From Candidatus Wolfebacteria bacterium RIFCSPLOWO2_01_FULL_45_19 (GTDB taxonomy: Bacteria; Patescibacteriota; Minisyncoccia; UBA6257; GWB1-45-9), in NCBI GenBank assembly GCA_001793855.1, contig MGIR01000001.1, positions 8,645 to 72,644 on the forward strand: DNA of 64,000 bases, given 5' to 3'. The translations under genes and the position numbers were made by a program. Positions 3,775 through 37,981 of the stretch are shown here, piece by piece; position 1 is the stretch's first letter, and every line of letters starts with the position of its first letter. The notes beneath the pieces were generated by a model. The model was not told the origin of the DNA, did no database searches, and worked only from the letters and a program-made list of their open reading frames with translations.

Positions 3775-4815
3775 TCATGATATGTCCTTTGGTTGCATGG
3801 GCACATTTAGAATATTCTTATAAAATTCAAGCTTCTCTATCGCGACGCCAGTGCCGCGCACAACGCAAGTTAGAGGGTCATCAATCACAACGGTTTTAAC
3901 ACCAAGCTCTTTTTCTATAAGCTGATCCATGCCTCTCAACAAACTGCCGCCGCCGCAAAGATGCACTCCGCTTTTCAGCGTATCGCCTACCAATTCCGGC
4001 GGAGTCATTTCTATAACGTCTCGAATGGCGTCTATTATCAAACGGAGAGAACGCGACATCGCCACGCGCGCCTGAGTATTTTTTATGTTAATTTCTCTCG
4101 GCAAGCCCGTTGCCATATCCCTGCCCCTGATAAGCATTTCAAGACGTTCGTCTATCGGCGTTGCGGAGCCGACTGTTTTTTTTATTTCCTCTGCCGTTGG
4201 CTCGCCTATCGCAAGCTTGAATTCTTCACGAACGAAACGAATCAGATCTTCATTTAATTTTTCTCCCGCGACTTTCAAGCTTAGCGCAGTGACTATTCCC
4301 CCAGTCGATATAACCGCGATTTCCGTGGTGCCGCCGCCTATATCAACTATCATGCTCGCGGTTGATTCGTTTATCGGCAAATCCGCGCCAAGCGCCGCGG
4401 CAAGCGGCTCTTCAATAATATATGCCCTGGCGGCTCCGGCACCGAGAACGGCGTCTTCCACCGACTTGCGCTCAACTTCGGTCAAATTGATCGGAACGCC
4501 TATAACCGCACGGCGATACCTGAAAAAACTGCTTCCAAGCTTTTGAAAAAATTTCTGAAGCATTTCCTGCGCCATATCAAAATCTGATATAACTCCGTTT
4601 ACCAGCGGCTTAACAACCTCTATATGAGATGGGGTGCGGCCAAGCATTCGACTGGCTTCGTGTCCTATCGCGTGTATCTGACTTGTTTTTGTATTCAGGG
4701 CGACCATCGACGGCTCGTTTATGACAATTCCTCTGCCAACTTGATAAATGAGCGAATTAGCGGTTCCAAGGTCAACTCCAAAATCTTGTGAAGCAAATTT
4801 TAAAAATTTAGTCAT
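3775..4815 (-). CDS. mreB: rod shape-determining actin homologue MreB
   Basis: DLGTANSLIY and the full actin fold signature. Confidence 0.9.
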   Translation of the reverse strand: MTKFLKFASQDFGVDLGTANSLIYQVGRGIVINEPSMVALNTKTSQIHAIGHEASRMLGRTPSHIEVVKPLVNGVISDFDMAQEMLQKFFQKLGSSFFRYRRAVIGVPINLTEVERKSVEDAVLGAGAARAYIIEEPLAAALGADLPINESTASMIVDIGGGTTEIAVISTGGIVTALSLKVAGEKLNEDLIRFVREEFKLAIGEPTAEEIKKTVGSATPIDERLEMLIRGRDMATGLPREINIKNTQARVAMSRSLRLIIDAIRDVIEMTPPELVGDTLKSGVHLCGGGSLLRGMDQLIEKELGVKTVVIDDPLTCVVRGTGVAIEKLEFYKNILNVPMQPKDIS

Positions 4816-6093: not shown

Positions 6094-6907
6094 AAAATTA
6101 TTTTAGTCATGCCCAATAATTAGGGCTTACGAAGCTCTAAATATTACTCCAAAGTTATTTGCGATATATCGCGTGAATCCATCTCCTTGAGCCAGCTCGT
6201 CATTGATTTTTTATACTGCTCCGGCCCATCAAAAAATTTAAGCAAGAGATCTCTCTGCGTTACGGAGGGAAAATTCTTTTTACCGATATAATCCGGAAAA
6301 CTGCTCCATCGGTAGTTTTCTAAATAGGCAAACGCTTTTTTATAATCTTTGACATCTCGCTCTCTCCAATTTGGCGCGAAATAATCAAGCGGATTGCAGT
6401 GAATATAAAATGGGAGGTGAATAAAATGCGCGTCATTATCGACGGCGATACATTTATATCTTCCTTCAAAAAGCGCGCCGGCTCTTTTGTATTTTAGATT
6501 AAAATAATTCGCGTATCCCATATTCAATCGCCGCATAAAAAGCGTCAACCATTCTTTAGAGCGCGCCCTGACGAGTAAATGATAATGATTTTTCATTAAA
6601 CAAAAAGTTAACATCTCAGCCAACAATATCCGCGGCCTTCGCTGTTTTTGTTGCCTCTCAATATTAGGGCTTGCGAAGCCCGAAGGATTAGTTTTGAAAA
6701 GATAGGTATTATTTGGAAGCGGCTGAGCGTCGTTAAATTCAAATAAATTATGAATAAATCTCATAAAATCCTCTTCATCCAAAAAAAGTTTTCTTTTGTC
6801 AACTCCTCTGCTTAAAATGTGGTAAATATTTCCAGGTATAATTTGCGGCCTCATAATAAACATACTCTAGCGCAACACTTAGGGCTTCGCAAGCCCTAAG
6901 TGTTGCG
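6094..6907. mobile_element. REP/RAYT unit: IS200-like tyrosine transposase gene flanked by TTAGGGCTT-NGC-AAGCCCTAA hairpins
   Basis: Hairpins at ~6100-6128 and 6871-6907 (16-17 bp stem), plus a third copy inside the ORF at ~6663-6683. Confidence 0.6.
6144..6863 (-). CDS. REP-associated tyrosine transposase (RAYT, IS200/IS605 Y1 family)
   Basis: YHILSRG and NHYHLLV HuH motif. Confidence 0.7.
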   Translation of the reverse strand: MFIMRPQIIPGNIYHILSRGVDKRKLFLDEEDFMRFIHNLFEFNDAQPLPNNTYLFKTNPSGFASPNIERQQKQRRPRILLAEMLTFCLMKNHYHLLVRARSKEWLTLFMRRLNMGYANYFNLKYKRAGALFEGRYKCIAVDNDAHFIHLPFYIHCNPLDYFAPNWRERDVKDYKKAFAYLENYRWSSFPDYIGKKNFPSVTQRDLLLKFFDGPEQYKKSMTSWLKEMDSRDISQITLE

Positions 6908-8358: not shown

Positions 8359-9369
8359 ATGTTTACTCGCAAAATCGGCATAGACCTTGGAACCGCGAAC
8401 ACTATCATATTCGTGCCCGGACGCGGTTTTATAATAAACGAACCAACCATAGTCGCGCTTAACAATTCAGACAATTCGGTTTTGGCGGTTGGCCGCGAAG
8501 CCAAAGAAATGCTCGGACGCACGCCGGAAGACATCACCGCTTACCGCCCTCTTAAAGACGGGGTAATAGCCGACTACTACATAACCAAGGCGATGCTCAA
8601 ATATTTCATCGCCAAAGCCGTCGGCCGTTTCAATTTGTCACGTCCCGACATCGTAATATCCGTTCCAGCCGGCATAACCACCACAGAACGCCGCGCGGTT
8701 ATAAACGCCGCCAAAGAAGCCGGGGCACAAGAGGCATATCCGGTAAAGGAACCCATACTCGCCGCGCTCGGCGCCGGCATTCCAGTAAACGCCCACCATT
8801 CCGGCAATATGATAATAAATATAGGAGGAGGCACTTCGGAGGTAGCCGTTATTTCACTCGGAGGTATCGTGTCATATGCAAGCCAGCGCGTAGCCGGCAA
8901 CAAGTTTGACCAGGCAATCATAAATTATCTGCGTAAAAAATATTCTTTGGCGATAGGAGAACAAACCGCGGAAACTATAAAAATAGAAATCGGTTCCGCC
9001 CTGCCTATAAAAAACAAACTGGAATTCAAACTACGTGGAAGGGATTGCATAACCGGATTGCCCAGAGACCTCGTGGTCAATTCCAATGAAATAGCCGAAG
9101 CGCTTACCCCACATCTTGTGGACATCGCCTCAGCCGCGCAGGGTGTTTTCAACGAAACTCCACCGGAACTAGTGGCGGATATAATGGAAAAAGGCCTAAT
9201 AATTTCCGGTGGCGGCGCGCAGTTAAGGCACATAAACGAGTTCTTTGAACGCGCCGTAGGAGTTCCGTCTTATATAGCCGAAGAACCGCTGTTTTGCGTG
9301 GCAAAAGGAACCGGACTTATACTGTCACACTTGGACGTGTATAAACGAACATTGTTGAACAGAAGATGA
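8359..9369 (+). CDS. second MreB/Mbl-like actin homologue
   Basis: IGIDLGTANTIIF. Paralogue of the 3775-4815 gene. Confidence 0.85.
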   Translation: MFTRKIGIDLGTANTIIFVPGRGFIINEPTIVALNNSDNSVLAVGREAKEMLGRTPEDITAYRPLKDGVIADYYITKAMLKYFIAKAVGRFNLSRPDIVISVPAGITTTERRAVINAAKEAGAQEAYPVKEPILAALGAGIPVNAHHSGNMIINIGGGTSEVAVISLGGIVSYASQRVAGNKFDQAIINYLRKKYSLAIGEQTAETIKIEIGSALPIKNKLEFKLRGRDCITGLPRDLVVNSNEIAEALTPHLVDIASAAQGVFNETPPELVADIMEKGLIISGGGAQLRHINEFFERAVGVPSYIAEEPLFCVAKGTGLILSHLDVYKRTLLNRR

Positions 9370-11087: not shown

Positions 11088-11618
11088 ATGGTTGATGACT
11101 TATCAAAAATTGTTGAGTCGCTAAGAAACGAATTAATAGGCACGCGCGGCAATCGCCCTTCGCCTAAAATGGTTGAAAACATACCGGTTGACGCCTACGG
11201 ACAAAAAATGACCGTAAAACAGCTCGGTTCCATAACTATTGTTCCGCCGCGGGAAATAGATATAACGGTATGGGACAAAGAAGCCGTAAATTTCGTCGCC
11301 AAAGCCGTGGAGGCGTCACCTCTCGGCGTAACGGCGAACGTTGAAGGAAATCTCATCCGTCTTAATCTTCCGACTCTGACCGAAGAAAGAAAAAAAGAAA
11401 TTATAAAAATGGTGAAATCAACCGCGGAAGAGCACAGAATAAAAATACGCGCCGCGAGAGACGAAGCAAACAAAAAAATAAAGGATGACGAACGGGATAA
11501 AAAAATAAACGAAGATGAATCGTTCAAGCTGAAAGAAAAAGTGCAAAAGAGCGTTAATGACGCCAACAAAAAAATTGAGGAAGTGGTTTTGGCAAAAATA
11601 AAAGAAATAGAAGAATGA
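11088..11618 (+). CDS. frr: ribosome recycling factor
   Basis: Full-length similarity to Frr. Confidence 0.85.
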   Translation: MVDDLSKIVESLRNELIGTRGNRPSPKMVENIPVDAYGQKMTVKQLGSITIVPPREIDITVWDKEAVNFVAKAVEASPLGVTANVEGNLIRLNLPTLTEERKKEIIKMVKSTAEEHRIKIRAARDEANKKIKDDERDKKINEDESFKLKEKVQKSVNDANKKIEEVVLAKIKEIEE

Positions 11619-20282: not shown

Positions 20283-21284
20283 TTATACCTCTTTTACGCG
20301 GTATTTTCCATCCGAAGTTCGTTCAAAAAAGTTTTTATTTTGAAGATTCAAAAAAACGGTGTTGGGCTTAAAAAATCTTTCACTCTGCACCGCGAGCAAA
20401 ACATCATTCGCGCGCATCGGGCCTTTTTCTTTCAAAATTCTTCGGATTACTTCCTTCGCTATGCCCGGTTTGTGGCCGTATTCAGCAAGCCCATACATTC
20501 CGCGGCCGACCAAAACAAAACGCTCGTCTTTTATCAATTCGTTGTGAACCGTCTGCGCGTATGCTTTCTTGCTGTTAAAATTCATTTTGTTTATTTCTTC
20601 CGCTATCTCCGAAAAATGCATCGGCTTCACTATCTTTTTAAGAACTATGTGCGCTTTTTCTTTCACGGTTTTCGGATATATTTCGGGCCACTCCGAAAGT
20701 CCGATGTCGCCGTAAGGATTGACGCCAAATCTTTTTGAAATTGAAACGTAATTCAGGCCAACGGCTTCACTAAGTCCGTGAGCTTTGGCCGCGGCGGCGA
20801 AAAGAACGCCAAACTTCCCTTTGTCAATAACTTCGTTTTTATTATCTTTCAAGGACACTTCCAGTTTTTTCAAAAAATTCCGCGTGCGGACCATTGCGTT
20901 TTTATCGGTGTGCCAAAAAGCGTGAAATTCGCCGTCTTCGTCGCGATGAAAAACGGCGCCGTTTACTTTCAAAATAAAAGCGGCCGCGCCGGGAAAACGC
21001 AAAGAAAAGCGGTCAGTTATTTCAACTCCACCGAGCGAACGAAGATACGAAACCGCGTCGGCAACGACTTTCTTGGCTTCTTCGTCGCGGTTGACTGCTT
21101 CGGCCGCGGATTTAAGCGCGGCGACTTCAATCTGACGGACGCGTTCCCGCGTAATTCCATATTTTCCCCCAAGCGCGGCAAGAGTTATTTTTCCCACTCT
21201 GCCGTTAAATCCATAACGAGCGGTCAAAATCTCGCGTTGTTTATCCGTAAGACCGGATAAAAGCCGTTTTAACAGCATTTGCAT
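20283..21284 (-). CDS. sigma-70 region-4 HTH + C-terminal HARE-HTH domain protein
   Basis: N-terminal LTDKQREIL...GITRERVRQIE (sigma region 4). C-terminal MHFSEIAEEI...RFVLVGRGMYGL (HARE-HTH / RNAP delta-like). Confidence 0.6.
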   Translation of the reverse strand: MQMLLKRLLSGLTDKQREILTARYGFNGRVGKITLAALGGKYGITRERVRQIEVAALKSAAEAVNRDEEAKKVVADAVSYLRSLGGVEITDRFSLRFPGAAAFILKVNGAVFHRDEDGEFHAFWHTDKNAMVRTRNFLKKLEVSLKDNKNEVIDKGKFGVLFAAAAKAHGLSEAVGLNYVSISKRFGVNPYGDIGLSEWPEIYPKTVKEKAHIVLKKIVKPMHFSEIAEEINKMNFNSKKAYAQTVHNELIKDERFVLVGRGMYGLAEYGHKPGIAKEVIRRILKEKGPMRANDVLLAVQSERFFKPNTVFLNLQNKNFFERTSDGKYRVKEV

Positions 21285-31712: not shown

Positions 31713-31994
31713 GATTTATATTATAGCAAAACTTTTCTCGTTGTCCCAAGAGTCGAGACTTGATGGCTCATCGACTAATACCATCCCGCCGAAGCGGGGT
31801 CGACACTAGTTTTCATTATTGAAAACTAAGTTTAATTAATCCACGCACAGCTTCCGCTACGCGTGCCTTGTTACGACTTCGTCCGTGTCACCGAACTTAC
31901 CCTAACCCCGCAAAACGGAGTTTTAGGTATTCCCGGCTTCCTTGACGTGACGGGCGGTGAGTACAGGACTCGAGAACGTATTCACCGCGGCATA

Positions 31995-32029
<35 letters not shown>

Positions 32030-32193
32030 AGGGCGAGTTGCAGCCCTCAATCCGAACTTGGGCCGGTTTTAAGGGATTAGCTCCACCTTACGGTTTGGCA
32101 ACCCTTTGTACCGGTCATTGTAGCACGAGTGTAGCCCAGGGCATCAGAGGGCCATGCGGATTTGACGTCGTCCCCTCCTTCCTCCCAGCACTT

Positions 32194-32359
32194 TGTTCGC
32201 AAACGAACAAAGCAATTTCTAAACTCTAATATCTAAATCCTAAACAAATTTTAAAAATCAAATCTCAAATTCGAAACGTTTGGAACATTTGAATTTGGAA
32301 TTTTGAGATTGTTTAGAGATTAGGATTTCGAATTTAGGATTTCTTTGCGCTTGTGCGCA
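32194..32359. repeat. ~165 nt palindromic heptamer-repeat element forming an expansion in the 16S h40 loop
   Basis: Closed by CAGCACTT/AAGTGCTG. The arms tctaaactctaatatctaaatcctaaac / gtttagagattaggatttcgaatttaggattt match the element at 21795. Confidence 0.7.
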
Positions 32360-32725
32360 AAGTGCTGGGCAGTTTTGCCTGACACGTATAACAGACAATA
32401 GGGGTTGCGCTCGTTTCCCCACTTAAGGGAACGTCTCACGATACGAGCTGACGACAACCATGCAGCACCTGTCCTGACGTCCTTGAGAGACAACACGCCT
32501 TTCAGCATGTCTTCGTCAAGATTTCTAGCCCTGGTAAGGTTCCTCGTTTAGTATCGAATTAAACCTCATGCTCCACCGCTTGTGCGAGTCCCCGTCTATT
32601 CCTTTGAGTTTTAAGCTTGCGCTCGTACTTCCCAGGCGGCCTGCTTAACGCGTTAGCTTCGCCACTCCGAGGGTCGATACTCGAAACAGCCAGCAGGCAT
32701 CGTTTAGGGCGTGGACTACAAGGGT

Positions 32726-33856
32726 TGAATTTGTTACTTCGCGACAATAGTATTATTGTCACGCGAGCCGAACATTTCTGTCGGCTTCTCTATGTTGCCA
32801 TAGAGTCCGGACTATATCTTTATCTGAAAGCCGTCCATCGAGCCAGTTTCTTCTCGTATTCGGATAAAATAACCGAACGAGGAAAGCGGCTCAAACTTAC
32901 AACCTCAGATATCCAGCGTTCTTGAAATTGAGAATCTTTATAGAGAAGTATTGCTTTGCGCAACATGTCCGGCGTTGGTATATGCGGCAGAATGATGCGA
33001 AGAAACTTTTTTAATTCCTCCTGCGATCTGATCCATATCCGCCAATATTGCCGCCGCTCTCCTTTATAGATACGGGATATGGGAGATACGATATTTTTTA
33101 TATCCCATACTACTTTAAGGTAGCGAGATAGTATTTTGACAGATTCTTTGTCAAAGCCATCGGTACAAAATACTCCCTTTCTTCCTCCGTAACTAATAAG
33201 TGAGCCATCATCACACCACCATACGGCGAGCGATAACGGGGTCATTCGGTTCAGCCAAGTGCGTCTAATGCGCAATCGGTTATTTTTATACGTTAAGCGA
33301 TGCAATTCAGTTAACGCTGGCAGATTTCTGCTTATAAACCGCCACTTGCTGTTTACGCTGAAACCGTCGGCCCTTTGGACACTAATACTTTTCTCTCGCG
33401 CTATCTCTTGAAGCATATCTGCTTTCCATAAGAGATAATCTTTTTGTGTTTCCGAATGACGAATTTGTAAATTCGCATTGGCACATTTTTTTTGAATCTT
33501 CAACGAACCGTCTCCTAGGATTGTTCCTAAAATAACGGCTCGCGCTTGATCCGACAAAGGCACATACTTTTTATCATTTTGCATATTATTATTTTATACG
33601 CTCATGACATAATGCGCCAACTATCTTAACTCAATTTCATAGTCTCTACGGGGTCAAACAAAATGAAATTTGAACTTTCAATTTTGCATTCTGTCGACTT
33701 CCCTCGGGATTGTCCGTCCGACAGGACGGAGTTCCCCGATACAGCTAGATGCTCACCCCGACGTCGCCGTCGAGGGGGACACCTTTGACAACCCCGATTT
33801 ACATCGGGGCTCTTTGTTTCTACGGGCAAAAGGAAAACCCTCCACAAAGATTTCGT
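32726..33856 (-). mobile_element. group I intron in 16S (near E. coli position ~790) carrying a homing endonuclease ORF; boundaries approximate
   Basis: It interrupts GGATTAGATA | CCCTTGTAGTCC. P7 elements GTAGAGACTATG (R) and AAGATATAGTCC (S) are present. Confidence 0.75.
32820..33584 (-). CDS. LAGLIDADG homing endonuclease (double-motif)
   Basis: ILGDGSL and WCDDGSL motifs. Confidence 0.8.
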   Translation of the reverse strand: MQNDKKYVPLSDQARAVILGTILGDGSLKIQKKCANANLQIRHSETQKDYLLWKADMLQEIAREKSISVQRADGFSVNSKWRFISRNLPALTELHRLTYKNNRLRIRRTWLNRMTPLSLAVWWCDDGSLISYGGRKGVFCTDGFDKESVKILSRYLKVVWDIKNIVSPISRIYKGERRQYWRIWIRSQEELKKFLRIILPHIPTPDMLRKAILLYKDSQFQERWISEVVSLSRFPRSVILSEYEKKLARWTAFR

Positions 33857-34457
33857 ATCTAATCCTTTTTGCTCCCCACGCTTTCGTGTCTCAGAGTCAG
33901 GAACGTCCCAGCCAGCTGCCTTCGCCTTTGGTGTTCCGCACGATATCAACGGATTTCACCCCTACACCGTGCGTTCCACTGGCCTCTGACGTCCTCTAGT
34001 TCGGCCGTATCTCTTGCAGCCTCAGGGTTGAGCCCCGAGATTTAACAAAAGACGCACCGAACATCCTACACACGCTTTACGCCCAATAAATCCGGATAAC
34101 GCTTGAGGTCTACGTTTTACCGCTGGTGCTGGCACGTAGTTACCCACCTCTTTCCACAGGGTACCGTCAACCTCGCGCGTAGCGCGAGAACCGAAAAACA
34201 CATGAACGTAAAAACGTAAGAACAAGTTGTTCTTTGGTTTATAGGTTCTTTAGTTTTTTAGTTCTTGTGCTACGCACAAGGCTTCTTCCCCTGCTATCGC
34301 GGTTTACGACCCGAAGGCCTTCTTCCCGCACGCGGCGTCGCTCGATCAGGCTTTCGCCCATTGTCGAATATTCTCGACTGCTGCCTCCCGTAGGAGTATG
34401 CACCGTGTCTCAGTTGCATCGTCGGGGAACAGGCTCTCACCCCCCCTACCGGTCATA

Positions 34458-34492
<35 letters not shown>

Positions 34493-34817
34493 CAGACCTA
34501 AGCCACTCCTGAAGCGATTTGCATCTTTACTCCGACACCCTTGCGGGGTCGGAGATTATTTGGAATTACCTCGTCTTTCGACGAGCTATGCCAAACTTCA
34601 GGGTATGTACTAAGGCGTTACTGACTCGTTCGCCACTGCCTCGCGCCTTGCGCGAGAACAAAAAAACGAAAGAACAAAAGAACTTAAGAACAAAAAGTTC
34701 TTGGGTTCATAAGTTCATGGGTTTTTTAGTCCTTGTGCAAAACACAAGGCCGTTCGACTTGCATGCCTTATCCACGCCGCCAGCGTTCATCCTGGACCAG
34801 GATCAAATCCTCAATAA

Positions 34818-34892
34818 GAGCTTTCAGCTTTTAGCTTATAGCTTATAGAAGGTAACCCCCCTAACAGCTAACAGCTATCAGCTAACAGCTCG
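34818..34892. repeat. agctNNN heptamer palindrome immediately upstream of the 16S 5' end
   Basis: agcttttagcttatagcttatag ... ctaacagctaacagctatcagctaacagct. Confidence 0.6.
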
Positions 34893-35296: not shown

Positions 35297-35554
35297 ATGA
35301 AGCCCGATATACATCCGAAATATTATGAAAAAGCCAATGTTCGTTGCGCTTGTGGAAATGAACTCACGGTTGGCTCCGCCAAGCAGGAGTTAAAAGTGGA
35401 AATATGCTCAAAGTGTCACCCATTTTATACAGGACAGGAAAAACTGATTGACACGGCCGGACGCGTGGAGAAATTCAAATCGCGCAAAGCAAGAGCGGAA
35501 GCCGCGCCCAAAAAAGAAAAAAGACCGCGCGCCAAAAAACAAAAGATGTCCTAA
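35297..35554 (+). CDS. rpmE: 50S ribosomal protein L31 (C-terminal Lys-rich extension)
   Basis: [10 protein letters not shown], with CxC...CxxH zinc-type motifs. Confidence 0.85.
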
Positions 35555-35557
35555 GCG

Positions 35558-36274
35558 ATGGTTCAAAAAGTAATTCTTGAAATTCGCGCCGGGGCCGGTG
35601 GAGACGAAGCCGGCATTTTCGCCGGCGACCTCGCGCGCATGTACCAAAAATATGCCGCTCAAAAGGGATGGAGATTTTCTATTATTGATTTTAATCAAAA
35701 CGATTTAGGTGGATATAAAAATTTGTCGGCTGAAGTAGCCGGCGAGAATGTTTATGAGATTTTGAAATATGAGATTGGCGTACACCGCGTTCAACGAATA
35801 CCAAAAACCGAAAAGGGCGGACGCGTGCACACTTCAACCGCCTCGGTCGCGGTTTTGCCGGAAGTGGAAGCAAAAGAAGTAAACTTAAATCTAGGCGATT
35901 TGGAAATAACTTTTTCACGCGGAGGCGGACCGGGCGGACAAAACGTAAACAAGGTTGAAACTGCGGTAAGAGTACTCCACAAACCGACTGGCATCGTCGT
36001 CGCCTCGCGCTCCGAACGTTCCCAGCATGCCAACCGCGAGAAAGCGATGGAGATACTTCGCGCCAAACTTTACGAAGAACAGCGGCGCCAGGCAGTTGGC
36101 TCAATTACCGAACTCCGCCGCGAGCAAATCGGCTCCGCGGAGCGTTCAGAAAAAATACGCACCTATAATTTTCCGGAAGACCGAATCACCGACCACAGAA
36201 TCGGAAAAAAATTCCATAACATAGAAAAGATTCTTGACGGCAACTTGGACCCTATCGTGAAAGCGTTCAGCTAA
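35558..36274 (+). CDS. prfA: class-I peptide chain release factor lacking N-terminal domain 1 (RF1-like, PKT tripeptide, GGQ)
   Basis: It aligns to E. coli RF1 domains 2-4 from [13 protein letters not shown] onward. GGQ is present. There is no room upstream for domain 1. Confidence 0.65.
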
Positions 36275-36289
36275 ATTTTTCGCGTGACG

Positions 36290-36560
36290 CGCCGCCCGTA
36301 TTCCTACCTGAACCGAACCGGTAAGTTTTTCGCGGGTCCTGCCGCCAGTTTTTCTCGCAGACACGCTATCAAATTCCCCAGCGAGGAATTTGCGCTCGCT
36401 CTCGGCCTCGCTCCTCCGACTGCGAGTCGGAGACCATGCCCGCTCGGCCTGCGAGACGGTCTGCTCGCAATAACTGGCGTCACCCGCGAAAACCTACATT
36501 GGTTCCCCAAGAAATACAGGCGGCGTATAAAAAACCTTGTTAAAATCATTTTTTCGCGTT
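36290..36560 (+). other. GC-rich structured non-coding region (candidate ncRNA or infB leader)
   Basis: About 60% GC against ~45% background. It has a long nested helix (CGCGGGT...ACCCGCG, CGCCAGTT/AACTGGCG, GCAGAC/GTCTGC, CTCCGACTgcgAGTCGGAG). The in-frame reading does not look like IF2. Confidence 0.4.
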
Positions 36561-36564
36561 ATTA

Positions 36565-37981
36565 TATGGGAACTATGGCAGAGAAACGTTCGTCAATTGT
36601 TGTTGTAATGGGCCACGTTGACCACGGCAAGACAACACTCTTGGATTACATTCGTAAAACAAACGTAACCGCTAAAGAAGCCGGTGGAATTACGCAGTCC
36701 ATCGGAGCATACGAGATAACCCACCCTTCAACGAGCTCAGGGCAAGCAAGAAAAATAACATTTATAGACACGCCGGGGCATGAGGCGTTTGTGAAAATGC
36801 GCGCGCGAGGAGCCGGAGTTGCCGACTTGGCGATTCTTGTTGTTGCCGCCGACGACGGAGTGAAACCGCAGACAAAAGAGAGTATAAAAATTCTTAAAGA
36901 AACCGAAACGCCGTTCGTTGTGGCGATAAATAAAATTGACAAGCCGAACGCCGATGTTGAAAGAACCAAAGCTGATTTAATGAAAGAAGACGTTTTACTT
37001 GAAGGATTCGGCGGCAGTATAAGCTGGCAGGCGATTTCCGCGAAAACCGGACAAGGCGTGAACGAACTGCTTGATCTTGTTTTGTTGTCGGCTGAAGTTG
37101 AGGACTTTGTTTATAATCCTGAGAATAAAGCGCGCGGAGTTATTGTTGAAGTGGAACAAAGTAGCAGCAGGGGAATTGAAGTATCGGCGGTTGTTAAAGA
37201 CGGCGTGTTGAGGGTCGGAGACGAAATAGCCACTCCGACCGCGGCTGGACGCGTGAAGATTCTTGAAAATTTTTTGGGTAAACGGGTTAAAGAACTTTCG
37301 CCTTCAAGTCCTGCTCTTATTATTGGTTTTGAAAACTTGCCGCAAGTCGGCGAAGAGTTTATGGCTGGCAACGTCGTTTTGAATGTATTGGAAACGCCGC
37401 CGCGGTTAAAGGCCATTCCTAAAACGGGCGCGATAAACATTATTTTGCGCGCGGACGTAGCCGGTTCTTTGGAGGCGATAGCGGATATTTTGAAAGCTTT
37501 GCAAGGAATTGAAATCATAGACGCGACAGTCGGCAAAGTTACTGGCGGCGATGTCCAGCTTGCCATTTCAACCGGAGCCGTAATCGTAAATTTCAAATCC
37601 AAAGTTGAAAAATCAGCGGAAATATTTGCCAAAAACAACGAGGTAAGAATAATTTCCTCAGAAATAATATATAAACTCGTAAAAACAATTGAGGACTTGC
37701 TTAAAGAAGGCGTGAAAGAAATAAAAGGCGAGTTGGAAATACTTGCCGTATTCAGCAAAAAAGGCAATCGTCAAGTTGTGGGCGGCCGCGCTACCAAAGG
37801 TATGCTAAGAAAAGGACGCGCGGAAATATGGAAAGGCGAGGAGCGTTTGGGAGATGGCAAAATTCTTAATCTTCAGGAATCCAAAAAAGATGTGACACAA
37901 TTGTCAGTGGATAAAGAGGGAGGATTGTTTGTGGATTCGGCTGTTATAATAGAAAAAGGCCACCGCGTTATACAGAAATGA
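36565..37981 (+). CDS. infB: translation initiation factor IF-2 (G domain to C-terminus; minimal form)
   Basis: [13 protein letters not shown]1 motif ~10 aa after MGTMAEK. The track ORF extends to 36284, but that part does not look protein-like. Confidence 0.8.

Follow-up and report, generated by a model that had tools for sequence, protein, structure and literature searches.

A release factor 1 without domain 1 encoded beside rpmE in a Patescibacteria genome

The prfA gene in a 64,000-nt stretch of DNA from Candidatus Wolfebacteria bacterium RIFCSPLOWO2_01_FULL_45_19 (contig MGIR01000001.1, positions 8,645 to 72,644; the whole stretch is called the window below) codes for a release factor 1 (RF1) of 238 amino acids (aa) without the N-terminal helical domain 1. 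In E. coli, domain 1 contacts the proline-rich helix of the N-terminal domain of ribosomal protein L11, and it bridges this L11 domain and domain 3 of release factor 3 (RF3), by which RF3 ejects the factor (Pallesen et al. 2013, PMC3677378). The domain has also been deleted in the laboratory. According to Baranov et al. 2006 (PMC1586002), on the work of Mora et al. 2003, the N-terminal deletion leaves codon specificity and in vitro release intact. The truncated RF1 is functional in vivo, and stimulation by RF3 requires the N-terminal domain (Baranov et al. 2006, PMC1586002). RF3 itself is non-essential, and no orthologues of it have been found in small genomes (Baranov et al. 2006, PMC1586002).

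A natural factor without domain 1 is PrfH, whose decoding head is divergent, with neither PxT nor SPF, and which is encoded adjacent to rtcB, is spread by sporadic horizontal transfer and acts in the rescue of damaged ribosomes (PMC6514570). The same review of release-factor evolution describes the three-module architecture of RF1 and release factor 2 (RF2) as near-universal in bacteria, and treats the candidate phyla radiation (CPR) only in a figure legend (PMC6514570). No description of an RF1 without domain 1 in CPR, Patescibacteria or Parcubacteria was found in the literature on release factors, RF3 and prfC, searched outside subscription journals.

Domain content and family assignment of the product

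An initial annotation of the window had read the 238-aa protein as RF1 domains 2-4 only, beginning at a position equivalent to about residue 110 of E. coli RF1. Pfam, NCBIfam and solved-structure alignments all agree with this reading. The product aligns over its full length to domains 2-4 (E. coli RF1 residues ~107-342), and the alignment begins at residue ~107-111 of the E. coli protein. The main features are as follows (A1, an alignment of 28 short RF1 proteins; ORF, open reading frame).

35558..36274 (stop codon included), + strand: prfA, 238-aa RF1 without domain 1; ATG to TAA; ORF, Pfam, NCBIfam and structure matches
35567..35848, + strand: domain 2, codon recognition; C-terminal half of Pfam PCRF (PF03462 profile 101-194 of 194, residues 4-97, E = 4e-44)
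35591..35611, + strand: G-A-G-G-D-E-A helix tip, residues 12-18; aligned with RAGTGG(D/E)EA of solved RF1s
35801..35809, + strand: PKT tripeptide, the RF1-type PxT 'anticodon', residues 82-84; from the sequence; P82 and T84 invariant in A1
35873..36199, + strand: RF-1 domain, that is domain 3 with the GGQ loop and the start of domain 4 (PF00472 profile 3-116 of 116, residues 106-214, E = 2.7e-37)
35933..35941, + strand: GGQ catalytic motif, residues 126-128; from the sequence; G126, G127 and Q128 invariant in A1
36116..36175, + strand: switch-loop region, residues 187-206; aligned with the T. maritima RF1 loop; mostly invariant in A1
35297..35554, + strand: rpmE, ribosomal protein L31, upstream neighbour of prfA (Pfam PF01197, E = 1.2e-29)

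Both motifs named in the initial annotation, PKT and GGQ, are therefore in place. GGQ is the motif that triggers peptidyl-tRNA hydrolysis. The middle residue of PxT varies among the relatives (K, A, E), as in RF1s generally. In the helix tip, G12, G14, G15, D16, E17 and A18 are invariant in A1; published RF1-ribosome structures assign to this helix tip the reading of the first stop-codon base. The RF1 reading residues (G12 to E17, Q79 of VQR, P82-K-T84 and V90-H91-T92) are all invariant or conservative, and the conserved set of the short protein comprises GxGG(D/E)E, VQR, PxT, R-V-H-T-S-T, GGQ and the switch loop. Residues 111-342 of the E. coli RF1 structure correspond to residues 5-235 of the product, and residues 86-318 of the T. 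maritima RF1 structure to residues 3-235 (E = 1.6e-82). An AF2 model of the short protein (pLDDT 84) superposes on ribosome-bound RF1 chains with a TM of 0.80. At the sequence level, the remaining 238 residues are shown to make up a complete RF1 core, with the decoding head (domains 2 and 4) and the catalytic domain 3 carrying GGQ. UAA/UAG-specific release is predicted for this core from the RF1 reading residues and homology.

The DNA upstream of prfA holds no room for domain 1, as had been claimed. Read from the sequence, the TAA stop of rpmE (35552-35554) is followed by GCG and then by the prfA ATG, which leaves a gap of 3 nt. The domain is also not encoded elsewhere in the window: tblastn with ten domain-1 queries (nine from related loci, mostly Patescibacteria, and the E. 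coli one) returned nothing better than E = 0.1, so that a hidden domain 1 upstream, in other frames or elsewhere in the window was rejected.

Among release-factor profiles, aligned as the initial annotation had proposed, RF1 gives the best match. The product scores 369 bits against NF001859 (profile 104-338 of 347) and 358 bits against TIGR00019 (profile 113-346 of 361), and misses the equivalog cut-offs of 400 and 423.25, respectively, because profile positions 1-103 and 1-112 have no counterpart in it. Being below the cut-off, the protein carries merely the NCBI name 'PCRF domain-containing protein', and automated surveys could wrongly score such genomes as lacking RF1. A four-domain RF1 architecture with helical domain 1 is not present, as PCRF is matched only at 101-194 of 194 and rpmE fills the upstream DNA.

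Other memberships were tried and rejected. The RF2 profile TIGR00020 scores 237 bits versus 369, and the RF2 hallmarks SPF, GVHRLVR and QIRSYV do not occur, with EKIRTYNF in place of the last. The ArfB profile reaches 45.5 bits (cut-off 100) and aligns only at residues 106-139, whereas the product has the codon-recognition domain 2 and domain 4. PrfH (TIGR03072) scores 77.2 bits, below its cut-off of 166.65, and the solved PrfH structure matches at E = 1.3e-13 versus 1.6e-82 for the RF1 structure. The product has the canonical PxT and the RF1 residues, and no RtcB domain was found among the window ORFs scanned against Pfam or in the listed neighbourhoods of four related loci (L001, L089-L091). 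The likeness to PrfH-like factors drawn in the initial annotation thus stands for the missing domain 1 and fails otherwise, in profile score, PxT motif and rpmE/infB context. On the profile scores, the PxT motif and the rpmE/infB neighbourhood, the short protein is, by sequence, an RF1 orthologue of the housekeeping type and not a PrfH-like paralogue.

Relatives, selection and history of domain 1

A search of 5.8 billion proteins gave 8000 scored homologues, of which the best 120 were listed. These best 120 are 74-87% identical to the product, almost all 238-253 aa long, start with M..K(V/I) and have no domain 1. Five entries are longer; four of them were read, and each carries a non-homologous, miscalled N-terminal extension before the usual start. 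Those closest homologues that have a named source bear the labels Parcubacteria group, Candidatus Paceibacterota and Patescibacteria group. Together with the features of the window described below, they mark the genome as one of Patescibacteria (CPR) of the Parcubacteria/Paceibacteria type. Some of the 120 come from contigs 200-660 kb long. Dozens of independent assemblies (JGI, ENA, NCBI, Logan) have the same start, among them contigs 588-829 kb in length; several of the contigs with the short gene stem from groundwater datasets of the Hainich.

GTDB genomes and JGI metagenomes were also scanned, which gave 166 RF1 sequences including those of the window and E. coli. In 36 of the 166 loci, the open frame upstream of the core spans fewer than 60 codons. 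One of these 36 (L082) is an alphaproteobacterial outlier that keeps prmC beside prfA. The same short gene occurs on ~35 independent contigs, and the gene before it is of three or more kinds. The window and the 660-kb contig L001 have rpmE there, and L002 has the rpmE-prfA order too; in L089 (588 kb) and L090 (364 kb) it is a response-regulator gene of divergent orientation, whose end lies 3-32 nt from prfA; L091 shows a third arrangement. Because the short architecture recurs behind different upstream genes, the frameshift or sequencing error that the initial annotation had named as an objection is excluded. Pairwise dN/dS against seven relatives is 0.06-0.10, with dS saturated. These results indicate that the short prfA is real, old and under strong purifying selection. 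An artefact of assembly, frameshift or gene calling, or a decaying pseudogene, the usual suspicion when one metagenome-derived sequence shows a truncated gene, is hardly conceivable against the intact rpmE in the upstream space, the identical start in independent assemblies, the low dN/dS and the intact catalytic and decoding motifs.

The RF1s of Patescibacteria fall into three classes by the length of the N-terminal domain. A full domain 1 of ~105-115 aa is present in Andersenbacteria (L067) and Spechtbacterales (L057); a shortened one of ~75-90 aa, with the first helix and an internal segment missing relative to E. coli, in Kaiserbacteria (L010) and Paceibacterota (L018); and the third class has none. 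In a quick neighbour-joining tree of the shared core, made without support values, 35 of the 36 short loci fall into one clade of 39 members. This clade sits inside a group of 77, whose other members have N-terminal domains of ~75-115 aa, the shortened class. Since the short clade is nested among Patescibacteria RF1s with a shortened or full N-terminal domain, the comparison of sequences points to a stepwise loss of domain 1 via shortened intermediates. Within the Parcubacteria/Paceibacteria part of Patescibacteria, domain 1 was lost long ago and across the clade. The short factor, as placed by its core sequence, is descended from ordinary Patescibacteria RF1s, which speaks for orthology and against a horizontally acquired paralogue.

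The gene order and the composition of the core were compared as well. prmC lies downstream of prfA in 37 of 99 full-length loci versus none of 65 short or shortened loci (gene order only). The short core has a net charge of +5.4 versus -0.5 in full-length RF1s overall and ~+4 in Patescibacteria RF1s that bear domain 1, and clade-specific substitutions were found at three positions only. Compensatory changes in the core were considered and are not claimed, because Patescibacteria RF1s with domain 1 are just as basic and no more than three positions are specific to the clade.

Side observations were made in the same RF1 set. Two loci, L129 (Ga0209518_1000143) and L133 (Ga0209541_10025556), are 64-66% identical to the RF1 of the window and carry an N-terminal helical domain of ~80 aa (MNQDIQKKLGEALKEYDVLEMGVAESFKWPREK...), which by eye, with no alignment run, is unlike the other shortened remnants. 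This domain may be a remnant of another kind or may have replaced the original one. Separately, unusual GGQ flanks are common to two Bacteroidota-labelled RF1 loci (L029, L034) and the RF2 cluster representative P0285, and are seen also in P0269, P0293 and P0294. The likeness between L029/L034 and P0285 would fit gene conversion or co-evolution of RF1 and RF2 in domain 3, if they are of the same lineage. Gene conversion or co-evolution between these paralogues in domain 3 is a published idea (PMC4530459).

The short protein could instead be an extra, specialised paralogue, PrfH-like or of the rescue type, with a normal full-length RF1 elsewhere in the genome. The missing domain 1 and the weak PrfH match of 77 bits would suit such a role, and the view of this genome is limited to the window. 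In contrast, the RF1 score is 369 bits versus 77 for PrfH with its cut-off of 166.65, PxT and every RF1 reading residue are retained, and the gene stands in the housekeeping context rpmE-prfA-infB, with no RtcB among the Pfam-scanned window ORFs. The identity of the product to RF1s from unrelated phyla, ~55-60%, is what a slowly evolving orthologue would show, and the tree puts the origin of the product within the domain-1-bearing RF1s of Patescibacteria. The best 120 of the 8000 relatives include no genuine full-length protein. tblastn with the short RF1 found no second release-factor homologue in the window, and none was found within 10 kb across ~165 RF1 loci. A paralogue is unlikely on this evidence.

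A split gene, in which a separate small polypeptide supplies domain 1 in trans, is quite improbable. Nothing direct speaks for it; domain 1 folds on its own as a helical bundle, and a partner could lie outside the window. The ten domain-1 queries, whose best match in the window was E = 0.1, argue against it. Moreover, no conserved small ORF stands beside prfA across the differing contexts of L001 and L089-L091, and the graded shortening in related lineages resembles decay and not fission.

Read-through of the rpmE stop (TAA-GCG-ATG) would give an L31-RF1 fusion in which L31 serves as the ribosome anchor in place of domain 1. In the window, rpmE and prfA are indeed in the same reading frame (spacer TAA GCG, 35552-35560), 3 nt apart. 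However, the spacing in L001 is 49 nt and the frames differ, and prfA is not beside rpmE in L089 and L090. The stop is TAA, and no recoding signal was noticed by eye, with no scan run. The fusion was therefore rejected as very improbable, neither frame nor adjacency being conserved; for the same reason, the shared frame in the window is probably a coincidence.

Translation termination and further features of the window

The stop codons of 80 long window ORFs are ~45 TAA, 21 TGA and 14 TAG. TAG closes the Pfam-validated genes rbfA, L17, a Mur ligase and the T2SSE ATPase (for the last, the Pfam call rests on a homologous 569-aa gene in L001), and TGA closes EF-G, IF2, TsaD and MraW at normal lengths. 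As all three stops are in use, the standard code applies, and activities of both RF1 and RF2 type are needed: the TAG stops require RF1 activity, and a separate RF2 must read UGA. The translation factors in the window include EF-G, EF-Tu, IF2 and the ribosome recycling factor.

11088-11615: ribosome recycling factor (RRF)

No homologue of RF2, RF3, L11, L1 or PrmC was found in the window, where the sole RF3-like match is EF-G.

We are fairly confident that this gene is the organism's ordinary, functional prfA, whose product lost the N-terminal helical domain 1 in evolution. By analogy with the domain-deleted E. coli protein, the short RF1 would most likely be a housekeeping UAA/UAG release factor that works without contact to L11 or RF3. 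The steps proposed here are drawn from homology and from published work on domain-deleted E. coli RF1. The short RF1 would enter the A site at UAA or UAG, open, place GGQ into the peptidyl-transferase centre and release the protein. Release would proceed without the usual contact of domain 1 to the N-terminal domain of L11 at the stalk base. The short RF1 would also offer no docking surface for the recycling GTPase RF3, so that it would have to leave the ribosome spontaneously, after which RRF and EF-G would recycle the ribosome. The lineage may have lost, or never relied on, RF3-assisted recycling, and the domain that served it would then have decayed. This scheme fits a slow-growing bacterium with a reduced genome in which RF3 is very probably absent.

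Several points weigh against this interpretation. RF1 is reportedly inactive on E. coli ribosomes without L11 (a reviewer's comment citing Tate et al. 1984, in PMC1586002), which means that the stalk contact matters in E. coli and that its loss here may need compensation. No such compensation was found in the core of the short RF1. The absence of RF3 from the clade is assumed. The survey of RF1 covered the 64-kb window and 10-kb flanks, so that a second full-length RF1 elsewhere in the genome is no more than unlikely, and for all members of the clade the proposed function draws on sequence and analogy. Three loci inside the 'short' clade, L129, L133 and L142, have an N-terminal domain of ~80-110 aa. 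Because these keep the domain and the tree is a quick neighbour-joining one, the number of losses is uncertain; domain 1 may have been lost more than once, or the tree may be imperfect.

The RF2 of the clade was also not found in several targeted searches, which did not reach it and have no bearing on its presence. A consensus RF2 query masked with X brought up nothing but Bacilli-like full-length RF2s, and a chimeric query (RF2 head with the domain 3 of the clade) brought up RF2s of Verrucomicrobia and Chitinophagaceae. When 1.84 billion cluster representatives were searched exhaustively with a profile of RF2 domains 2-4, the best 150 matches listed contained no RF2 of the clade; all of them have domain 1, are fragments, or are gene calls from a conserved internal M(F/L)SGE motif. 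Two candidates were rejected, their contexts being those of a gut Firmicute and a Gram-negative bacterium. A scan of IMG/VR gave 22 RF2-like loci on viral-catalogued contigs with no sign of the clade. Plasmid and phage collections were also searched for a mislabelled Patescibacteria genome readable over its full length, and yielded none.

The 'reduced termination system' suggested by the initial annotation is a reasonable inference for the clade. A wider proposal is tentative and rather doubtful: a large, ancient clade of Patescibacteria might end all translation without any contact of a class-I release factor to the stalk or GTPase centre, with an RF2 that perhaps also lacks domain 1 and with no RF3. 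In a stronger version, L11 or the 23S stalk base could have changed in co-evolution with the loss, or a replacement partner could have co-evolved with it. If stalk-independent termination were true, these would be natural 'minimal' bacterial release factors, in a series of full domain, ~80-aa remnant and none. It could also bear on an old idea, taken up in the discussion of Baranov et al. 2006 (PMC1586002), of a two-module ancestral factor to which domain 1 and RF3 were added late.

Downstream of prfA lies a gene for a short IF2.

36572..37981 (mechanical ORF from 36284), + strand: infB, short IF2, downstream neighbour of prfA; Pfam GTP_EFTU and IF-2 from ORF residue 102

The conserved part of infB begins near the Met at 36572, which gives an IF2 of ~470 aa; homology to the GTPase domain starts from about residue 100 of the ORF. 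Compared with E. coli IF2, the protein is without the long N-terminal domains. The TGA stop of infB overlaps the start of rbfA (ATGA). The interval between prfA and infB contains a GC-rich segment of ~240 nt (36289-36530, + strand) that folds into one long imperfect hairpin, with a minimum free energy of -108.8 kcal/mol (z = -4.2 versus shuffles). The mechanical infB ORF crosses this hairpin, and IF2 homology begins only downstream of it. The hairpin has no Rfam match at E <= 1, and a second copy of a 23-nt probe from it is absent from the window. Possible readings of the hairpin are a structured leader, a small RNA and an inserted element.

The 16S rRNA gene (31829-34818, - strand) measures 2990 nt versus a model of 1533 nt and contains an insertion with a 254-aa LAGLIDADG homing-endonuclease ORF (32820-33584, - strand). 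Such interruptions are well known as a mark of CPR rRNA genes. Near this 16S gene there is neither a 23S nor a 5S gene. The cumulative GC skew has its minimum at ~34-36 kb, with almost all genes to the left on the - strand and almost all to the right on the + strand. This pattern suggests that replication starts close to the 16S gene and rpmE; the Pfam scan of window ORFs identified no dnaA.

The window also holds type IV pilus genes and ribosomal protein operons. In the latter, rpsJ (55650-55982) is followed by a non-coding gap of 327 nt and an L3 ORF (56310-56732, + strand) of 140 aa that matches only the middle part of the Pfam L3 profile. Bacterial L3 usually has ~210 aa; the L3 of the window is either strongly reduced or has an unusual start. 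A 333-aa protein with an N-terminal sigma-70 region 4 motif and a HARE-HTH domain (20286-21284, - strand) is encoded just downstream of tRNA-Trp, where other bacteria usually have secE-nusG-rplK; the 64-kb window lacks the rplK cluster. For a reduced genome, the window further contains two full-length MreB paralogues (3778-4815, - strand, and 8359-9366, + strand), MreC and two PBP2-type transpeptidases. An IS200-like Y1 transposase ORF lies between the two MreB genes, and the interval 6147-6863 (- strand) belongs to the same set of features.

Comparison with known systems

The short RF1 adds to the trimmed translation parts of Patescibacteria, next to the short IF2 and the 140-aa L3 of the same window. 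Canonical RF1 (PrfA; TIGR00019 / NF001859) is matched residue for residue in domains 2, 3 and 4, with PxT, GGQ, the switch loop and the GxxE of the helix tip. The RF1 of T. maritima is ~60% identical to it (own count from the printed alignment) and that of E. coli 43-45% (Foldseek), and the fold predicted by the model equals that of ribosome-bound RF1. Unlike canonical RF1, the short protein is missing the first ~105 residues, the helical domain 1 with its L11 and RF3 contacts, and prmC is not adjacent to its gene. The gene order rpmE-prfA is also known from other bacteria, e.g. B. subtilis.

Mitochondrial mtRF1a is likewise an RF1-type factor, and its solved structure 7nqh matches the short RF1 at E = 3e-68. 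It differs in having kept the N-terminal domain, with the aligned region starting from residue 111 of a 362-residue chain. Human mtRF1a carries the same tripeptide, PKT, and mitochondria are not known to have an RF3. ArfB, ICT1 and C12orf65 (mtRF-R) resemble the short RF1 as reduced members of the superfamily that carry GGQ and act without RF3. In contrast, they consist of the GGQ domain and a basic tail only, do not read stop codons, and match the short RF1 at residues 106-139. PrfH (RF-H, TIGR03072) shares more, being also without domain 1 and having kept GGQ and a domain 2/4-like head. The divergent head, the rtcB adjacency, the sporadic horizontal spread and the rescue role of PrfH are not features of the short RF1.

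Functionally closest is the engineered E. coli RF1 without N-terminal domain (Mora, Zavialov, Ehrenberg, Buckingham 2003, per PMC1586002), which has the same architecture, with the deletion boundary in the same region; PrfH, ArfB and ICT1 are accessory rescue factors. The engineered protein kept specificity and release and had no interplay with RF3, and by analogy the short RF1 would have the same properties. It is a laboratory construct in an RF3-containing cell and supports slow growth only, whereas the short RF1 is natural and fixed in a large lineage. The short RF1 is thus nature's counterpart of the deletion experiment and shows that life is possible without domain 1, at least for slow-growing cells with reduced genomes. 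It offers a ready-made minimal RF1 for structural and kinetic work, and the graded natural series could show what domain 1 contributes: on-rate, stalk docking or RF3-driven recycling. Given the earlier deletion work, the mechanism comes as no surprise; the novelty lies in a huge lineage whose housekeeping factor exists in the short form, with the intermediates alive.

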